A stretch of 64,000 nucleotides of DNA from Paludibacter sp. (GTDB lineage: Bacteria > Bacteroidota > Bacteroidia > Bacteroidales > Paludibacteraceae): positions 59,200-123,199 of the forward strand of contig JAMPAY010000003.1 in the NCBI GenBank assembly GCA_023666945.1, written 5' to 3'. The position numbers and the translations under genes are program-made. A model generated the notes under the pieces. It ran no database searches. It saw only the letters and a program-made list of their open reading frames with translations, and was not told where the DNA came from. How positions within the stretch are numbered: the stretch's first letter is position 1; the number at the start of each line of letters is the position of its first letter. Below are positions 10,137 to 16,695 of this stretch, piece by piece.

Positions 10137-11747
10137 TTATTTTTCCAGCGAAGGACCGGCAGCAACGAGTGCCTTACCTGCTTCATTGCCTTCGTACTTA
10201 GCAAAGTTCTTAATGAAACGACCTGCCAAATCTTCAGCCTTTGTGCTCCATTCTTCTGCATTCGCATAAGTATCGCGAGGATCAAGAATCTTAGGATCAA
10301 CTCCCGGCAACTCTGTAGGAACTTCGAAATTGAAATAAGGAATAGTCTTGGTGGGAGCAGACAGAATTGCGCCATCAAGGATAGCATCGATGATACCACG
10401 TGTATCGCGGATAGAGATACGTTTGCCTGTTCCGTTCCAACCGGTATTAACGAGATATGCCTTAGCACCTGATTGTTCCATTTTCTTCACCAATTCTTCA
10501 GCATACTTTGTAGGATGCAACTCCAAGAAAGCCTGACCGAAGCAAGCAGAGAAAGTAGGAGTAGGTTCTGTAATACCACGTTCGGTACCTGCCAACTTAG
10601 CAGTGAAACCACTCAAGAAGTAGTATTTAGTCTGCTCTGGAGTCAAAATACTTACCGGAGGCAATACACCGAAAGCATCGGCCGACAAGAAGATTACATT
10701 CTTGGCAGCAGGACCTGCAGAAACGGGGCGTACAATATTCTCAATATGATTGATAGGATACGACACGCGTGTATTCTCGGTAGTACTCTTGTCGGTGAAA
10801 TCGATTTTACCGTTCTCGTCAACTGTTACATTCTCGAGAAGAGCATCGCGACGAATAGCATTGTAAATATCAGGCTCCGACTCTTTATCAAGATTGATAA
10901 CCTTTGCATAGCAACCGCCCTCGAAATTGAAAACGCCATTATCGTCCCAACCGTGTTCGTCATCACCAATAAGCAGACGTTTAGGATCGGTAGAAAGAGT
11001 AGTTTTACCCGTACCGGACAAGCCGAAGAAGATAGCGGTATTCTCACCATTCTTATCGGTATTTGCAGAGCAGTGCATAGAAGCGATACCTTGGAGGGGC
11101 AGATAGTAGTTCATCATAGAGAACATACCTTTCTTCATTTCGCCACCATACCAAGTGTTGATGATTACTTGCTCGCGGCTGGTAGTATTGAATGCTACGC
11201 AAGTTTCTGAGTTAAGACCTAATTCTTTGTAGTTCTCTACTTTCGCTTTGGAAGCGTTGTAGATTACAAAGTTAGGTTCGAAGTTTTCCAACTCCTCAGC
11301 CGTAGGTTGAATAAACATGTTGGTAACAAAGTGTGCTTGCCATGCCACCTCAACGATGAAACGTACAGCCATGCGTGTATCTTTGTTTGCTCCGCAGAAA
11401 GCATCAACAACAAAGAGACGTTTGTTGCACAACTCTTTCTTTGCGATTTCTTTAACGACAGCCCATGTTTCTTCCGACATCGGGTGATTGTCGTTTTTGT
11501 ATGCATCGGATGTCCACCACACGTTATTGTGGCTCTGAGCATCGTCTACGATGTATTTGTCTTTAGGTGAACGACCTGTGTAAACACCGGTCATAACATT
11601 TACTGCACCAAGTTCGGTGAGTTGTCCTTTGTCAAATCCGGTCAATCCTTCTTTGGTTTCTTCTGCAAACAGAACCTCATAAGACGGATTGTGCAGGATT
11701 TCAGTGGTACCAGTGATACCATACTGAGTCAAATCTAAATTCTTCAT
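10137..11747 (-). CDS. pckA: Phosphoenolpyruvate carboxykinase (ATP)
   Basis: [13 protein letters not shown]...[16 protein letters not shown]-terminus, [11 protein letters not shown] kinase-1a motif, throughout PEPCK-ATP-like. ORF extends to 11810, but the internal Met at 11747 matches the conserved N-terminus. Confidence 0.9.
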
Positions 11748-11857
11748 ATCCTTTAAATAATTAAATAGGTTTATATGCTTAATCCTTGCCTTATCCGTGA
11801 TATTCGTCACCGCAACTTCGTTTCTTATTTACTCAAAAACCACTTCTTAAGGCGATA

Positions 11858-11865: not shown

Positions 11866-12055
11866 CAATTATTATTTCAATCCCACAAATAGCATTACAG
11901 ATTTATTTCCGTAATATTTCCGTTTGCCAATTCCGCCCGTCAAGTTATTCGTAATTTTGCAAAGCAGATGTTACAAAACAGAGAAAGTTACGTGTTTTTA
12001 TGCTAAAAAGCATATTTTTCTACACATAACTATTGCGTATATGAAAAAAGTGCCG

Positions 12056-12063
12056 TACTTTTG
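12056..12063 (+). promoter_or_regulatory. -7 promoter box TACTTTTG for lipoprotein-rSAM operon
   Basis: TAnnTTTG consensus, ~125 nt upstream of ATG 12189. Confidence 0.4.
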
Positions 12064-12108
12064 CACCGTGTTTTTCATGGTATTAGATTTAAGGTTAAGT
12101 AAAGATTG

Positions 12109-12138
12109 GGTTGTCGGGATGACAACCTTTCTTTTTTT
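12109..12138 (+). terminator. Intrinsic-terminator-like hairpin inside the 5' leader (GGTTGTC-GGGAT-GACAACC followed by TTTCTTTTTTTAT)
   Basis: Perfect 7-bp GC-containing stem plus 11-nt T tract. Lies between the candidate promoter and the start codon. No upstream plus-strand gene to terminate, so it is a possible attenuator or leader sRNA. Confidence 0.45.
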
Positions 12139-12188
12139 ATATACATGTCTTAACAGACACATATAGTATACACACAATCTATATCAAT

Positions 12189-12746
12189 ATGAAACAAACA
12201 GGATATAAACTCAAGAACAGACTACTAACTAAGATAAATCTGCTATTAGGTACTCTTATAGCATTATTGGGCATTGGTTGCAAAAGTCAGAAAGTCGTTA
12301 TAGAGAAACAAGAGATCGGAGATACAGTATCCGTAATAGAAGAGAATAATCGTATTGTAGCCATGTATGGTATTCCCAGTGCAAAATATGTAATAGAAGG
12401 TGCTATTACCAATCGTTCCAACGAACCCTTAGAGGGCAAGCAAGTGATTGTGCATACCAATACCTATAGCATAGATACACTCTACACGAATAATGACGGT
12501 CGTTTTGAGAGTAGTTCCTACGGATTCCCGACCGACAGTGTAACCATAGAAGTAAACGATCCCGAGCACCTCTATGAATCCACTCAAAAGAAAGCCGCAG
12601 TTGTTTACGACGACAAAAAAGATACTTGGAACTACGGAACAGGCAAGGTTTCCGTAAATATACATTTACAGAAAACAAAGTCGGACATGTCGCAAATAAG
12701 AGTAAAATACGGCATTCCACATTCGTCTGTACCCACAAAGGAGTAA
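12189..12746 (+). CDS. Radical-SAM-associated putative lipoprotein (resembles the TIGR04133-type family from memory) with CarbopepD_reg-like beta-sandwich segment
   Basis: Lipobox LLGIGCKS. EGAITNRSNEPLEGKQVIVHTNTYSIDTLYTNNDGRFE resembles the carboxypeptidase-regulatory-like domain. YGIP motif appears twice (MYGIPSAKY and KYGIPHSS). Stop is 2 nt before the rSAM start. Confidence 0.55.
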   Translation: MKQTGYKLKNRLLTKINLLLGTLIALLGIGCKSQKVVIEKQEIGDTVSVIEENNRIVAMYGIPSAKYVIEGAITNRSNEPLEGKQVIVHTNTYSIDTLYTNNDGRFESSSYGFPTDSVTIEVNDPEHLYESTQKKAAVVYDDKKDTWNYGTGKVSVNIHLQKTKSDMSQIRVKYGIPHSSVPTKE

Positions 12747-12747
12747 G

Positions 12748-13824
12748 ATGTATATGAATATAAGACTGAAAATTGCCCTTGAACTGGAGCGTCTCAGACG
12801 TAATAATCTGAAGACACTACATCCGTTGCAACAATTGTTTTGGGAATCGACCCTTCGTTGTAATGTAAACTGTCTGCACTGTGGCAGCGACTGCAAGAGT
12901 GCTCCCACCCACAAGGACATGCCGGCAGAAGATTTTCTGCGCGTAATAGACAGCATTATGCCTCATGTCAATCCGAACGAGGTGATGATAGTAATCTCCG
13001 GTGGCGAACCACTGATGCGCAATGATATAGAAGAAGTGGGACATGCACTGCATAAACGCGGTTTTCCTTGGGGCATGGTTACCAATGGGCTTGCCCTCAC
13101 TCCCGAACGTTTCAGACGCCTACGTCAAGCAGGATTATGCTCCATGACCGTAAGTTTGGACGGTTTGGAAAAGGAACATAATTGGATGCGCGGTAATCGT
13201 CTTAGTTTTTCCGCTACCAGCAGAGCCATACAACTTGCCGCTGGTGACCCTACGCTGGTGTGGGACGTAGTAACTTGCGTAAACAAGCGAAACTTAAAAC
13301 AGTTGCCTGCCTTGCGCGATTATCTATGGAGTATAGGGGTAAGGAATTGGCGACTATTCGGCATTGACCCCATGGGACGTGCCAAAGATAATCCGGAACT
13401 ACTATTAGAGAACTCCCAATTTGTAGAACTACTTGAATTTATCAAAGCAGAGCGATTGGCAGGCAGACATGTATCGTATAGTTGCGAAGGCTTTTTAGGC
13501 ACTTATGAGGGCGAAGTACGCGACCACTTGTATCAGTGCGCTGCCGGCATCAGTGTTGCTTCCATATTGATAGACGGAAGTATCTCTGCCTGTACCTCCA
13601 TACGCGGAAAATACTACCAAGGAAATATCTACAAAGATGATTTTTGGGACGTGTGGGATAATGGTTTTCGCAATTATCGTGATCGCAGTTGGATGAAAAA
13701 GCAAGAGCCTTGCAATAGTTGTAAACTATTCCGCTATTGTGAGGGCAACGGTATGCATCTGCGAGAAGAGAACGGTGAACTAATGCTTTGCCATCTGCAA
13801 CGCATAGAACACGAACGACAGTAA
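12748..13824 (+). CDS. Radical SAM / SPASM-domain protein (peptide- or protein-modifying maturase-like)
   Basis: CNVNCLHC (Cx3Cx2C) near N-terminus. Cys-rich C-terminal region (CAAGISV..SACTS...CNSCKLFRYCEGNG...C) typical of a SPASM auxiliary cluster domain. Confidence 0.8.
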   Translation: MYMNIRLKIALELERLRRNNLKTLHPLQQLFWESTLRCNVNCLHCGSDCKSAPTHKDMPAEDFLRVIDSIMPHVNPNEVMIVISGGEPLMRNDIEEVGHALHKRGFPWGMVTNGLALTPERFRRLRQAGLCSMTVSLDGLEKEHNWMRGNRLSFSATSRAIQLAAGDPTLVWDVVTCVNKRNLKQLPALRDYLWSIGVRNWRLFGIDPMGRAKDNPELLLENSQFVELLEFIKAERLAGRHVSYSCEGFLGTYEGEVRDHLYQCAAGISVASILIDGSISACTSIRGKYYQGNIYKDDFWDVWDNGFRNYRDRSWMKKQEPCNSCKLFRYCEGNGMHLREENGELMLCHLQRIEHERQ

Positions 13825-13845
13825 CCATCGTAACAGAGTATTCTT

Positions 13846-14751
13846 ATGCATATTCATATAATATCGCCCTCCGGTGCAATAGAACCCCAATACATAGACA
13901 ATGCTTATTCCGTACTACGCCAACAAGGTTATCGTGTTAGCATGAGCCCCCATGCCAAAGGACGCTACGGGCGTTTTTCCGGCACAGAGGAAGAACGTCT
14001 TGCAGACCTGAATGCAGCATTAGACAATCCTGATATTGATATTATACTATGTAGCAGGGGGGGCTACGGAATGGCACAAATAGTTGACAGCATACAATTG
14101 CCGAAAACACATCGTCCGATGGTGATTGGTTTTAGCGACATTACGTGTCTGCACAATCTACTGGGACAAAAAGATATTCCGTCGTTACACGCCATTATGA
14201 CCAAGCATATTGCCACACTCCCTAAAGACGCTCCCGCCCTACAAAGTCTGTGGCAATGTCTGCGAGGGGAAGATATCGACTATAGACTTCCATCTCATCC
14301 GCTAAACAAAACAGGTGTGACACAAGGCATATTGCGCGGCGGGAATTTATCGGTTCTCTACGGTTTGCAAGGAACCCCCTACGCCATCAATACGAAAAGG
14401 GACACTATTCTGTTTATAGAAGATATTTGCGAACGCCATTACCATGTTGACCGAATGCTGCAGAACTTACGCTTGAGCGGTGTATTGAGCAAACTGAAAG
14501 GACTTATTGTCGGTCAATTCACTGATTGCGATGATGACCCCAGCATGCGAGAGAGTCTTCAAGAGAGTATAATGAAAGCCGTGAGTGAATATGATTACCC
14601 TGTTGTATTCGACTTTCCTGCCGGGCATGTAGAGTATAATTTGCCCTTACTGATGAATCAGAGTTGCCAACTAAGCATAACACCCGATGAGGTGCATTTC
14701 AGACAAGAAGCAGTACTATATCAATCAACAAATAATAAACATATTGTATGA
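13846..14751 (+). CDS. ldcA: LD-carboxypeptidase (peptidase S66, muramoyltetrapeptide carboxypeptidase)
   Basis: CSRGGYG motif, GFSDITCL nucleophile motif, C-terminal FPAGH(V) motif. Confidence 0.75.
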   Translation: MHIHIISPSGAIEPQYIDNAYSVLRQQGYRVSMSPHAKGRYGRFSGTEEERLADLNAALDNPDIDIILCSRGGYGMAQIVDSIQLPKTHRPMVIGFSDITCLHNLLGQKDIPSLHAIMTKHIATLPKDAPALQSLWQCLRGEDIDYRLPSHPLNKTGVTQGILRGGNLSVLYGLQGTPYAINTKRDTILFIEDICERHYHVDRMLQNLRLSGVLSKLKGLIVGQFTDCDDDPSMRESLQESIMKAVSEYDYPVVFDFPAGHVEYNLPLLMNQSCQLSITPDEVHFRQEAVLYQSTNNKHIV

Positions 14752-15185
14752 AAAAGACTATTTTAGCATTGGTCGCACTAATAGTCGGCTCTATAGCCGG
14801 CTCTGCGCAAATCAACGAGATTGTAGGGGAATGGTATACAGTGGACGACAAGACCGGGGAGAGTTATTCTGTAGTAAGTATCTACAAAGGAAGCAACGGA
14901 AAATACTACGGTAAAATTACCGAGATGTTACTTCCCGGAACCGAAGATGAAATCTGTACCGCCTGCAAAGATGAGGACAAGAACAAACGCATCTTAGGCA
15001 TGGTAATAATACGCGACATGGTTGAGAAAGACGGTGTATTGAGCGGAGGCAAAGTATTAGACCCTGACAATGGTAAATTCTACTACGGGAAAATCTATAT
15101 TGAGAATGGCAAACTCGCTTTGCGCGGTTCGTTAGACAAGTGGGGAGCCTTAGGACGTACCCAATTTTGGAAAAAGAAGAAATAA
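14748..15185 (+). CDS. Secreted DUF2147-family protein
   Basis: Signal peptide. GEWYTVDD...YKGSNGKYYGKI...GKIYIENGKLALRG pattern. ATGA overlap with ldcA. Confidence 0.5.
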   Translation: MKKTILALVALIVGSIAGSAQINEIVGEWYTVDDKTGESYSVVSIYKGSNGKYYGKITEMLLPGTEDEICTACKDEDKNKRILGMVIIRDMVEKDGVLSGGKVLDPDNGKFYYGKIYIENGKLALRGSLDKWGALGRTQFWKKKK

Positions 15186-15691: not shown

Positions 15692-16126
15692 ATGATAAAT
15701 AATACCTCCATAGATTTTAACGCACGGGATTACCTCCAGACCCATGGCATAAGTCCTTCGTTGGCTCGTATAGCGATAGCGGAAGATTTGCATCGTCATC
15801 GTCAGCATGCCACTGCGGAGGCTATTTATGAGCGTATCAGCAAGCAGAATTTAAATCTATCGCGTGCAACGGTATACAATACCCTCAACCTATTTGCAGA
15901 AAAAGGAGCGATACGCAGTATCAACATAGACGGCAAATATACCCGCTATGATTTTGTGACCGATTTTCATGCCCATTTTCGCTGCAGGATATGCGGAGCA
16001 ATAGAAGACATCGCCATAGCCAATCGTCCGCTATTCTCCAACATGCCGGCGGCAACCATAGAAACAGAAGAATACTACATCAGCGGCATTTGCCCAAGAT
16101 GCAAGCAAAACATCATAAAACAATAA
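15692..16126 (+). CDS. Fur-family metalloregulator (PerR/Fur-like)
   Basis: N-terminal winged-HTH region ([15 protein letters not shown]), HAHF..CxxC and C-terminal CPRC metal sites. Sits upstream of a rubrerythrin, which suggests a PerR-like role. Confidence 0.75.
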
Positions 16127-16146
16127 CTTATAAAAAACAAACAACT

Positions 16147-16695
16147 ATGCAAAAAAAATGGATGTGCAGCGTGTGCGGTTATGTACACGAAGGTGCCAAC
16201 CCACCAGAGTTCTGCCCTCAGTGCAAACAACCCGCTTCTAAATTTGTAGAAGTAAACGAAGAGAAACTGTCTTTCGCTACAGAGCACGTAATCGGCGTAG
16301 CCAAAGGTTGCGATGAAGAAATGATTAACGACCTGAATGCTCACTTTATGGGCGAAGCGACCGAAGTAGGAATGTATTTGGCAATGAGTCGTCAAGCCGA
16401 TCGTGAGGGTTACCCTGAAATAGCCGAAGCCTTCAAACGCTACGCTTTTGAAGAAGCAGAGCATTGTGCTAAATTTGCAGAATTGCTCGGTGATGTAGTT
16501 TGGGATACGAAGACCAATTTAGAGAAACGTATGATGGCTGAAAATGGTGCTTGCGCAGATAAGTTCCGTATTGCCAAACGTGCTAAAGAACTGAACCTTG
16601 ACGCTATTCACGACACTGTTCATGAGATGGCTAAAGACGAGGCTCGTCATGGTCATGGTTTCGAAGGACTCTTTAACCGCTACTTTGGCAAATAA
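16147..16695 (+). CDS. rbr: Reverse rubrerythrin (N-terminal rubredoxin-like CxxC...CxxC, C-terminal ferritin-like di-iron domain)
   Basis: [12 protein letters not shown]...CPQC followed by EATEVGMY...EEAEHCAKF...EARHGHGF E/ExxH di-iron motifs. Domain order is inverted relative to classical Rbr. Real start at 16147, not ORF start 15991. Confidence 0.8.

Follow-up and report, generated by a model that had tools for sequence, protein, structure and literature searches.

The window, i.e. the whole stretch of 64,000 nucleotides that was analysed, comes from a gut/rumen Bacteroidales bacterium (Paludibacter sp.) and carries a radical SAM gene adjoining a fast-evolving lipoprotein gene. Both belong to a set of four tightly spaced ORFs, all on the + strand, between positions 12189 and 15185. 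These encode a lipoprotein precursor of 185 aa, the proposed substrate (12189-12746), a radical SAM/SPASM enzyme of 358 aa (12748-13824), an S66 LD-carboxypeptidase-like protein (LdcA) of 301 aa with N- and C-terminal Peptidase_S66 domains (13846-14751) and a secreted protein of 145 aa matching DUF2147 (14748-15185). The ORFs and their arrangement, with the lipoprotein gene directly upstream of the radical SAM gene, are those described in a first-pass annotation of this DNA, except that the spacer between these two genes is 1 nt and not 2 nt. The S66 peptidase gene follows after 21 nt and overlaps the DUF2147 gene by 4 nt. As that annotation had pointed out, no small precursor peptide ORF is present: the gaps (1, 21 and -4 nt) leave no intergenic room for one.

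The interval had been made to start at 12056, but its first ~90 nt (12056-12141) consist of a promoter box and an sRNA gene. The box, a Bacteroidota -7 element (TACTTTTG, 12056-12063, + strand), matches TANNTTTG and is correctly positioned for the 5' end of a FopS-family sRNA gene (12068-12141, + strand; Rfam RF04319, 79.8 bits for a gathering threshold of 56, full-length match 1-71/71). FopS genes carry canonical sigma-ABfr promoters. Only one other -7 box (11952-11959) occurs on the + strand upstream of the operon. The FopS gene has its own intrinsic terminator, a hairpin (12108-12128) followed by a T run, and no FopS gene was found upstream of the lipoprotein gene in six close relatives. 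FopS is an independent neighbour gene and not a part of the radical SAM/lipoprotein system; alternatively, its region is possibly a leader through which the operon must be read.

The enzyme matches TIGR04133 over its full length (2-350/350) with 545.9 bits for a cutoff of 425, and contains the Pfam domains Radical_SAM (PF04055) and SPASM (PF13186), in agreement with the first description. Its CX3CX2C cluster motif, C38/C42/C45 (12859-12882, + strand), is invariant in the family alignment. The SPASM region (13537-13791, + strand) contains C264, C282, C322-x2-C325-x5-C331 and C348; an invariant glycine, G335, stands where the canonical CX2CX5CX3C has its fourth cysteine, and an extra cysteine, C246, lies upstream. 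The protein has no signal peptide and is therefore cytoplasmic. It has no N-terminal RRE domain and begins with a conserved helix (aa 5-21). The folds nearest to its AF2 model (pLDDT 74, pTM 0.83) are SuiB (top), anSME (TM 0.66), PqqE and SkfB, which places it by prediction among SPASM enzymes that modify peptides or proteins.

No characterised family reaches its cutoff with this enzyme: the NCBIfam matches listed other than TIGR04133 all stay at or below 122 bits, far under their cutoffs, as the first-pass annotation had anticipated. The best of them is the splicease family TIGR04103, followed by AhbD, NirJ2 and TIGR04053 (116, 115 and 112 bits respectively). Membership of the splicease family (TIGR04103/IPR026482) is rejected, with 121.9 bits for a cutoff of 725. 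An anaerobic sulfatase maturase is likewise rejected, no anSME family being among the best 25 NCBIfam matches; the anSME PDB-profile match is just 43 bits, and no cognate sulfatase bearing C/S-x-P-x-R is among the neighbours (lipoprotein, S66 peptidase, DUF2147). At profile level the enzyme resembles the characterised families only weakly throughout, so that homology does not fix the chemistry.

The lipoprotein matches TIGR04134, "radical SAM-associated putative lipoprotein", with 58.4 bits for a cutoff of 39.8, and an identical database protein bears the title [quoted passage not shown]. With both genes above the curated TIGR04133/TIGR04134 cutoffs, the family name given in the first-pass annotation proved right. 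The signal peptide (12189-12281, + strand; …LLTKINLLLGTLIALLGIGC) is specific to the family. Read from the sequence, a K/R-rich n-region and a hydrophobic h-region precede the lipobox L-G-I-G-C31, at whose cysteine the signal peptide ends. Its HMM matches only lipoproteins linked to the radical SAM gene in ~0.9 Mb of six-frame translations. The model of the protein contains a helix at aa 4-28, and the signal peptide may double as a recognition or leader helix. A central beta-sandwich-like domain (12339-12674, + strand) corresponds to the TIGR04134 match (aa 51-162). The CarboxypepD_reg similarity reported for it does exist in the window protein, as a sub-threshold match (aa 69-123; 22.3 bits for 32.3, E 1.6e-4), but the domain is not conserved in the system.

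The window pair does not differ from the TIGR04133/TIGR04134 "rSAM/lipoprotein system", a pair of NCBIfam hypothetical equivalogs, and database homologs of the enzyme are named "radical SAM enzyme (rSAM/lipoprotein system)". To our knowledge no chemistry, substrate site or function has been assigned to it since the families were defined. The one paper found to cite TIGR04134 does so by mistake, the family meant being that of the T9SS type-B CTD. TIGR04133-like enzymes abound in gut and rumen metagenomes, which account for over 7,900 of the cluster representatives among the matches listed at E ≤ 1e-20.

The adjacency of the two genes is conserved, as had been supposed. Of 80 related loci, 59 have a same-strand lipoprotein with the family signal peptide; the distance from its end to the radical SAM start is at most 30 nt in 37 of these 59 and at most 110 nt in 47. 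Among nine sampled relatives with 37-54% enzyme identity the pairing is kept in five, at 54% (L086), 52% (L088), 49% (L092), 42% (L083) and 40% (L093). No adjacent lipoprotein is found in ~15 related loci with sufficient flank, nor in L081 and L082. In a relative with 48% identity (L089/L090) the enzyme adjoins Cys/Asp-rich peptides instead, which indicates that the substrate, and perhaps the chemistry, shifted within the wider clade.

The two partners evolve at very different rates: in the nearest relatives the lipoproteins are 29-33% identical, against 74-77% for the enzymes, and a word-seeded search with the lipoprotein returned no match beyond the protein itself. Such faster evolution is what one would expect if the lipoprotein were a substrate or core peptide. 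The partner lipoproteins vary in domain content, motif copy number and length (59-194 aa). Of the 61 distinct ones, 42 are at most 115 aa long (59-112 aa), rich in P, V and E, and without beta-sandwich, a domain that is therefore dispensable in most TIGR04134-type partners. These short forms are a signal peptide and motifs with little else. Their mature regions contain 1.0% Cys and 0.2% Trp, which disfavours thioether or Trp chemistry.

What the 61 partners share is the lipoprotein signal peptide followed by one to four copies of a [K/L/M]-Y-G-[V/I/P]-P motif, the sole conserved feature of the mature protein. The duplicated YGIP noticed at first in the window protein corresponds to two copies: M59-Y60-G61-I62-P63 (12363-12377, + strand; context IVAMYGIP), directly N-terminal of the beta-sandwich, and K173-Y174-G175-I176-P177 (12705-12719, + strand; context IRVKYGIP), whose Tyr174 lies 11 residues from the C-terminus. 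Most members of the family have their last motif 6-13 aa away from the C-terminus. The 5353 mature residues of the 61 proteins, taken from related genomes, contain 139 YG dipeptides for 15.3 expected, the maximum over 2000 shuffles being 27. Gly follows 53.5% of the Tyr of the partners, against 6.6% in the other ORFs of the same loci. At least one copy is present in all 61 partners and at least two in 53. Over the 139 motifs the composition is K70/L29/M18/E11, then Y and G, both invariant, then V88/P15/I11/T7/A4/C4 with also L and S, then P95; some lineages (L088, L060) have Y-A in place of Y-G. What is new here is that the beta-sandwich is dispensable and that conservation narrows to the signal peptide and an X-Y-G-V-P repeat, which gives a formerly "uncharacterised co-occurrence" a defined candidate site. 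Nothing else in the mature lipoprotein being conserved, the YG motif agrees well with the proposal of the first-pass annotation that the enzyme acts on the KYGIP region.

The same data bear on a different reading, in which the lipoprotein is not the substrate. The enzyme would have a small molecule or some other protein as its substrate, e.g. in AhbD/NirJ-like tetrapyrrole chemistry, the lipoprotein being co-regulated and chemically unrelated, and the four genes would form an envelope/peptidoglycan operon in this lineage. The nearly equal scores of AhbD, NirJ2, TIGR04053 and the splicease family, the loci without adjacent lipoprotein, a gene spacing in the window that suggests co-transcription with LdcA and DUF2147, and the presence of LdcA near the radical SAM gene in ~17 of 80 loci all speak for it. 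We nevertheless consider it quite improbable. A functional partner should keep a fold or an interface, and this lipoprotein keeps only a five-residue repeat and a signal peptide. Moreover, the enzyme and the exported lipoprotein occupy different compartments, so that any interaction between them precedes export. LdcA is missing from most loci and lies on the other strand in six, and DUF2147 is found in just 13. Although the S66 peptidase and DUF2147 genes are probably co-transcribed with the radical SAM gene in the window, neither is a conserved partner. Their linkage is confined to the closest relatives, with a shuffled gene order, LdcA being convergent or missing elsewhere; it is lineage-local synteny outside the system. 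The cell-envelope role once drawn from these two genes can therefore hold only for the closest relatives.

The lipoprotein is probably the substrate of the adjacent enzyme, because its repeated YG motif resembles the sites where known spliceases excise tyramine; the motif is probably the site of modification. In spliceotides X-Y-G, with X variable, defines the splice site, sites may be multi-copy, and MYG and LYG sites are documented. The proven PlpXY cores AVAAMYGVVFP and PIRPLYGLPI contain AAMYGVV and IRPLYGLP, to be compared with IVAMYGIP and IRVKYGIP in the window. The co-encoded window substrate likewise has two X-Y-G sites, Tyr-Gly is invariant across the 61 partners, often in several copies, and an aliphatic residue and Pro follow. 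The best overall explanation is therefore a splicease-type radical SAM enzyme acting on the YG motifs of the lipoprotein, to which we give a probability of roughly 0.45; the chemistry itself, tyramine excision giving alpha-ketoamides, would be a little below an even bet.

The first-pass annotation had expected a cross-link, and the main rival is indeed a Tyr-centred C-C (or C-O/C-N) bond within the same pair. This could be a three-residue cyclophane joining the Tyr ring to C-beta of Val/Ile/Pro at +2 (a triceptide-like Y-G-V) or a Lys-Tyr link. Each motif would lose 2 Da, and the lipoprotein, at the surface or in the periplasm, would acquire rigid knots that resist proteases. In favour of this rival, 88 of the 139 motifs have Val at +2 after Tyr, and SuiB, the top structural neighbour, forms a Lys-Trp cross-link. 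Triceptide synthases, too, are radical SAM/SPASM enzymes, and their targets are repeated aromatic-X-X motifs, Tyr included (YxdB, YhhB). But in triceptides X3 is the conserved specificity residue and X2 is free, while in the window family X2 is an invariant Gly and X3 varies (V/P/I/T/A/C/L/S); the triceptide (3-CyFE) motif is rejected on this ground. A Lys-Tyr link, for its part, cannot apply generally, since only 70 of the 139 motifs have Lys before Tyr. An N-terminal RRE domain is lacking in the enzyme, and the only cyclophane-synthase family among its best 25 NCBIfam matches is WgkB, with 59 bits. A cross-link appears rather unlikely, the invariant X-Y-G pointing instead to splicease-type excision of tyramine; if it did occur, it would define a new class of Tyr-Gly-Val cyclophanes on lipoproteins.

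Other modifications of the same motif seem less likely still: L-to-D epimerisation of Val/Ile (YydG/PoyD-like), beta-hydroxylation, or a Tyr C-alpha-C-beta lyase reaction leaving a glycyl residue. Each of these reactions on peptides is known from radical SAM/SPASM enzymes, 99 of the 139 motifs have Val/Ile after Gly, and the weak profile similarities are compatible with them. None accounts for an invariant Tyr and Gly amid variable neighbours, however, and PoyD-like epimerase families are absent among the NCBIfam matches listed.

With tyramine splicing as the preferred reading, the cytoplasmic enzyme would act on the unfolded preprotein prior to Sec export, at every [K/L/M]-Tyr-Gly-[V/I/P]-Pro motif, most likely by removing from the Tyr the equivalent of a tyramine (C8H9NO, -135.07 Da). 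After export and attachment of lipid to Cys31, the modified lipoprotein would be held in the envelope. With Met (site 1) and Lys (site 2) as P1 residues, its tethered ketoamides could inhibit serine or cysteine proteases in a covalent-reversible manner, or trap them. Inhibition of Ser and Cys proteases is known for the ketoamides of spliceotides, yet such a role for the lipoprotein is a speculative proposal that we hold to be unlikely as it stands. The same doubtful standing is given to a broader idea, that TIGR04133 enzymes are an unrecognised Bacteroidales-wide branch of tyramine spliceases with lipoprotein substrates, the signal peptide as RiPP leader and an anchored array of Lys/Met/Leu alpha-ketoamides directed against trypsin-, chymotrypsin- or elastase-like proteases, for the protection of abundant gut and rumen bacteria or for trapping. 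On that idea, the splicing of backbone beta-amino acids would for the first time have a natural physiological role in a structural cell-envelope protein.

If splicing takes place, backbone beta-amino-acid/ketoamide chemistry would reach envelope lipoproteins of dominant host-associated Bacteroidales, beyond secreted cyanobacterial and proteobacterial peptides. It would offer a plausible way of shielding the cell surface from proteases of hosts and microbes and, for protein engineers, a compact five-residue splice site with Lys at X. Radical SAM enzymes would also join the logic of RiPP-lipoprotein hybrids (DAG-RiPPs).

Compared with known spliceases, the window enzyme resembles PlpX by its SPASM domain and the lack of a fused RRE. 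The type I spliceases PlpX and PcpX work with a Y protein; binary systems without it exist (RhaX/RcsX/RasX), and the two-component layout of the locus, with the substrate encoded next door, is like theirs. No PlpY-like ORF is found at the locus, where the candidate activating helices are the signal peptide and aa 5-21 of the enzyme, the latter missing in PlpX. PlpX, a verified TIGR04103 member (824 bits), is only 28% identical to the window enzyme (BLASTP E 7e-34), and its SPASM domain is CX2CX5CX3C where the TIGR04133 family has CX3G and an extra upstream Cys. Its reciprocal match to TIGR04133 is 147.6 bits, against 168 for AhbD and 152 for TIGR04053; PlpX being no closer to TIGR04133 than to these families, homology gives splicing no preference over other chemistries. 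The substrates differ as well: a lipoprotein signal peptide stands in place of the Nif11/NHLP-type leader of spliceotides, the proposed product is membrane-anchored and not released, and Lys is the commonest X.

Triceptide synthases share with this system radical SAM/SPASM enzymes and repeated aromatic-X-X precursor motifs; the window enzyme differs from them by the absence of an RRE domain, and no profile similarity is reported. In the anSME system, too, a radical SAM/SPASM enzyme modifies a short protein motif in the cytoplasm before export, that of Sec-exported sulfatases, whereas the window locus has neither sulfatase nor C/S-x-P-x-R motif. The DAG-RiPPs of Bacteroidota are RiPP-lipoprotein hybrids modified by MNIO enzymes (PNAS 2026, PMC13056109). 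All their described maturases are MNIO, radical SAM goes unmentioned in that paper, and their motif is a C-terminal CPACGMG in place of XYGVP repeats. They nevertheless have the same organisation, i.e. a short precursor with SPII signal and lipobox beside a cytoplasmic maturase (42 of the 61 partners here measure 59-112 aa), a short recognition motif in a highly variable remainder, a two-gene cluster and Bacteroidota hosts, and thus set an example, in this phylum, of lipoprotein precursors that undergo RiPP-type modification in the cytoplasm (PMC13056109).

Scans against NCBIfam and Pfam assigned four co-directional ORFs on the + strand of the window, separated by spacers of 1 and 21 nt and then by a 4-nt overlap. 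ORF1 (12189-12746, 185 aa) belongs to TIGR04134, “radical SAM-associated putative lipoprotein” (58.4 bits, cutoff 39.8), with a further sub-threshold match to CarboxypepD_reg in the Pfam scan. ORF2 (12748-13824, 358 aa) belongs to TIGR04133, “rSAM_w_lipo” (545.9 bits, cutoff 425), and carries Radical_SAM and SPASM domains. ORF3 (13846-14751, 301 aa) has both Peptidase_S66 domains and reaches 140 bits with the NCBIfam equivalog for E. coli-type LdcA, whose cutoff is 378, and ORF4 (14748-15185, 145 aa) is a DUF2147 protein. The upstream gene, pckA (10137-11810, - strand), is divergent. The family pair named in the first-pass annotation is thus correct, both members being over their cutoffs. A characterised rSAM family such as the anaerobic sulfatase-maturating enzymes (anSME) was rejected for ORF2: only TIGR04133 approaches its cutoff in NCBIfam, all other rSAM families staying at or below 122 bits, far under theirs. 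Sequence and fold searches of the PDB with this protein retrieved generic rSAM/SPASM relatives only; the nearest solved folds of its AlphaFold model (pLDDT 74, pTM 0.83) are SuiB, anSME, PqqE and SkfB, all of them SPASM enzymes that modify peptides or proteins.

In this Paludibacteraceae-like genome, a gene for the sRNA FopS (12068-12141, + strand) lies between pckA and the lipoprotein operon, inside the interval that the first-pass annotation had given to the operon. It is a full-length match to Rfam RF04319 (79.8 bits, gathering threshold 56), preceded by a canonical sigma-ABfr -7 box (TACTTTTG, 12056-12063, + strand) and ending in an intrinsic terminator hairpin with its T-run (12108-12141, + strand). 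RF04319, the FopS family, consists of paralogous Bacteroides sRNAs that are trans-acting repressors of PUL susC mRNAs (PMC11697453). FopS was found upstream of the lipoprotein in none of six close relatives, so its adjacency to the operon is incidental; for this reason, and because the family is known to act in trans, FopS was rejected as a leader or riboswitch conserved with the operon. The stretch from the FopS terminator to the ATG at 12189 has no further TAnnTTTG box, so the operon may owe its transcription to read-through of this terminator. Just downstream of the operon we noted by eye a Fur/PerR-like regulator ORF (15692-16126) that overlaps a rubrerythrin-like ORF (15991-16695) in the 5' extension of the latter, whose true start is probably at an internal Met; together (15692-16695, + strand) they would be a PerR-rubrerythrin oxidative-stress pair.

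A Paludibacter sp. MAG has a recorded lipoprotein identical to that of the window, and the closest homologs of the rSAM come from Paludibacteraceae and from rumen and gut Bacteroidales. A word-seeded homolog search with the window lipoprotein returned only the protein itself, and the partner lipoproteins were therefore gathered from rSAM neighbourhoods. The genome-collection scan returned 80 loci (rSAM identity 66-77%), 59 of which keep a lipoprotein partner on the same strand (58 detected by a signal-peptide HMM and one by motif); five or six of the loci with no detected partner are truncated at a contig end. The 3' end of the partner is at most 30 nt from the rSAM start in 37 of the 59 loci, and at most 110 nt in 47. 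The adjacency first seen in the window is thus maintained among relatives. Among sampled 50%-identity cluster representatives from an exhaustive HMMER search, which beyond Paludibacteraceae-like MAGs cover a handful of metagenomic contigs, the pairing is kept at rSAM identities of 54% (loci L086/87), 52% (L088), 49% (L092), 42% (L083) and 40% (L093). No lipoprotein lies beside the rSAM at L081 (46%) or L082 (37%), and at L089/90 (48%) small Cys/Asp-rich peptides take the place of the lipoprotein.

The LdcA and DUF2147 genes are on the same strand as the rSAM only in the ten nearest of the 80 loci, in the order ldc-lipo-rSAM-DUF2147 or lipo-rSAM-X-ldc-DUF2147. Another six loci have LdcA on the opposite strand, in convergent orientation, and most of the 80 have neither gene within 6 kb of the rSAM. 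With this restriction to the nearest relatives, the variable order and the opposite strand, the two genes were rejected as core components: their linkage is decaying synteny and not a conserved operon. The cell-envelope role that had been drawn from them is therefore weak.

Some TIGR04133-like proteins have other contexts or architectures. The small Cys/Asp-rich peptides (L089:887-1443 and L090:3-1498) flank the 48%-identical rSAM P0124, have a VSELIFL-type N-terminus in common and resemble a RiPP precursor family of their own. On the contig of P0129, the gene 15 nt upstream of a 42%-identical rSAM encodes a 663-aa protein without a Pfam match, which may be a large protein substrate. Five distant representatives (P0162, P0196, P0206, P0249 and P0158) are natural fusions, including tandem rSAM-rSAM proteins of 736-854 aa, a protein carrying a weak Peptidase_M50 region and another carrying a TrmK-like methyltransferase domain. 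P0166 (33% identity, alignment A3) is devoid of the CX3CX2C cluster cysteines and may be a pseudo-radical-SAM paralogue.

The nearest ortholog lipoproteins are 29-33% identical, versus 74-77% for their rSAM enzymes. The 61 distinct partners span 59-194 aa, and 42 of them, of at most 115 aa, have P/V/E/A/Q/T-rich mature parts without beta-sandwich. This domain, which the first-pass annotation had described in the lipoprotein, was consequently discarded as the conserved or recognised element. The partners share a family-specific signal peptide, K/R-x-x-L-x-R-[IV]-N-x-L-L-G-…-L-A-G-C, whose HMM had no match outside partner lipoproteins in a six-frame translation of about 0.9 Mb, and they carry one to four copies of a short Tyr-Gly motif. 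At least one copy is present in all 61 partners and at least two in 53, with the logo [I/V]-[M/V]-[V/A/C]-[K70/L29/M18/E11]-Y-G-[V88/P15/I11]-[P95]-P; in most partners the final copy is 6-13 residues from the C-terminus. We counted 139 Tyr-Gly dipeptides in the 5353 mature residues, versus 15.3 expected (2000 shuffles: mean 15.6, sd 3.7, maximum 27), and Gly follows 53.5% of Tyr in partners versus 6.6% for the remaining ORFs at these loci. The window lipoprotein has two copies, IVA-M59-Y-G-I-P (12363-12377, + strand) and IRV-K173-Y-G-I-P (12705-12719, + strand); its two other YG dipeptides (SYGFP and NYGTG) are at domain positions and their Tyr is not conserved in homologs. A single-sequence AlphaFold model of this protein was uninformative (pLDDT 37.5). 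At four loci (L023, L024, L032 and L069) a single rSAM gene is accompanied, 2-4 kb upstream, by two or three paralogous YG-motif lipoproteins; a subfamily of these paralogues ends in QDFQLKKK and has both motif copies N-terminal to the beta-sandwich.

Since signal peptide and motif are shared and the domain is variable, the first two, and not the domain, are the selected features. Such a pattern marks an enzyme substrate (a RiPP-like core) and not a structural partner, and it makes a lipoprotein that is not a substrate very unlikely. We estimate at about 0.8 the probability that the lipoprotein is the substrate of the rSAM, modified at its YG motif.

As to the chemistry, we tentatively favour tyramine splicing. 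An invariant Tyr-Gly after a variable residue (XYG) is the defining site of spliceotides, and the experimentally proven splicease cores are AVAAMYGVVFP (PlpA3) and PIRPLYGLPI (PlpA2). When aligned on YG, PlpA2 and the second window site have 5 of 8 residues in common (IRPLYGLP / IRVKYGIP), and PlpA3 and the first site 4 of 8 (VAAMYGVV / IVAMYGIP). It is also documented for spliceases that one precursor can hold several sites, that a splice tag of about 10 residues is recognised independently of the leader, and that binary systems do without the Y protein. Repeated aromatic-X-X motifs, Tyr included, are also acted on by triceptide synthases, which would fit a Tyr cross-link; however, in triceptides the conserved cross-link partner is the third residue (X3), with X2 free, whereas here X2 (Gly) is invariant and X3 variable. 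A Lys-Tyr link cannot hold generally, Lys preceding Tyr in just half of the motifs, and we consider a cross-link unlikely. Another modification of the lipoprotein is quite unlikely: epimerisation or hydroxylation, for example, would leave the invariance of Tyr and Gly unexplained. Thioether (sacti- or ranthipeptide) chemistry was set aside as unlikely, Cys being 1% of mature regions and none conserved. The motif is C-Y-G-M-P in the partners at L064:5486-5701 and L092:70-459, the lipobox Cys itself being residue X; if the chemistry is splicing, their lipidated N-terminal Cys would be the converted residue. Y-A takes the place of Y-G at L088:2024-2985 and L060:933-1175 (FLYASP, SLYAPL, MYAPP), beside a 52%-identical rSAM. 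With these variants and the Cys/Asp-rich peptides, the chemistry may be non-uniform in the wider clade.

The splicease PlpX, recovered from the Pleurocapsa PCC 7319 locus via its precursor PlpA3, is a bona fide member of TIGR04103 (824 bits), the best non-self family of the window rSAM (121.9 bits). PlpX scores 147.6 bits against TIGR04133 and is 28% identical to the window rSAM over 277 aa (pairwise BLASTP, E 7e-34). As AhbD (168 bits) and TIGR04053 (152 bits) both score slightly above TIGR04133 for PlpX, we counted this homology as weak support only: the relationship is real but does not discriminate against these two families. At the first auxiliary cluster PlpX has the canonical CX2CX5CX3C, whereas in TIGR04133 the fourth Cys is an invariant Gly and an extra upstream Cys246, missing from PlpX, is found; each enzyme thus has only three obvious Cys ligands. 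TIGR04133 also has a conserved N-terminal helix (aa 5-21; L13, E14, R17, R18, N20 and H25 invariant) that PlpX lacks. PlpX depends on a helix that PlpY provides in trans, and RhaX on one from its precursor leader; setting the TIGR04133 helix beside this PlpY/RhaA-leader requirement is speculation only.

The rSAM has no signal peptide and the lipoprotein has an SPII-type signal, with a lipobox (L-G-I-G-C31) that fits the usual pattern; modification would therefore have to precede Sec export. The rSAM would act on the lipoprotein precursor, as anSME does on sulfatases. The unusually conserved signal peptide could be a leader or activating helix, or could delay export. Once exported and lipidated, the product of splicing would carry ketoamides bearing Met/Leu or Lys side chains. 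Because spliceotides with a ketoamide inhibit both serine and cysteine proteases, a role of the modified lipoprotein as a tethered protease inhibitor or trap is a reasonable hypothesis for gut and rumen bacteria.

The TIGR04133/TIGR04134 gene pair is already catalogued. In the literature searched, we found neither a substrate motif or chemistry assigned to this pair, nor a radical-SAM example of a RiPP-lipoprotein hybrid, nor a Bacteroidota splicease. However, Scott et al. 2022 (Chem 8:2659) reportedly mined all rSAM-SPASM neighbourhoods for YG-rich ORFs, with 27 systems characterised and 939 predicted across 189 genera; TIGR04133 may be among the 939. In the DAG-RiPPs of Bacteroidota, an MNIO modifies lipoprotein precursors before export, the same timing as we infer for the rSAM/lipoprotein pair; the authors state that further families of RiPP enzymes could follow this concept, radical SAM not being mentioned (PMC13056109). 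The pair may thus be likened to spliceotide systems or to DAG-RiPP systems.
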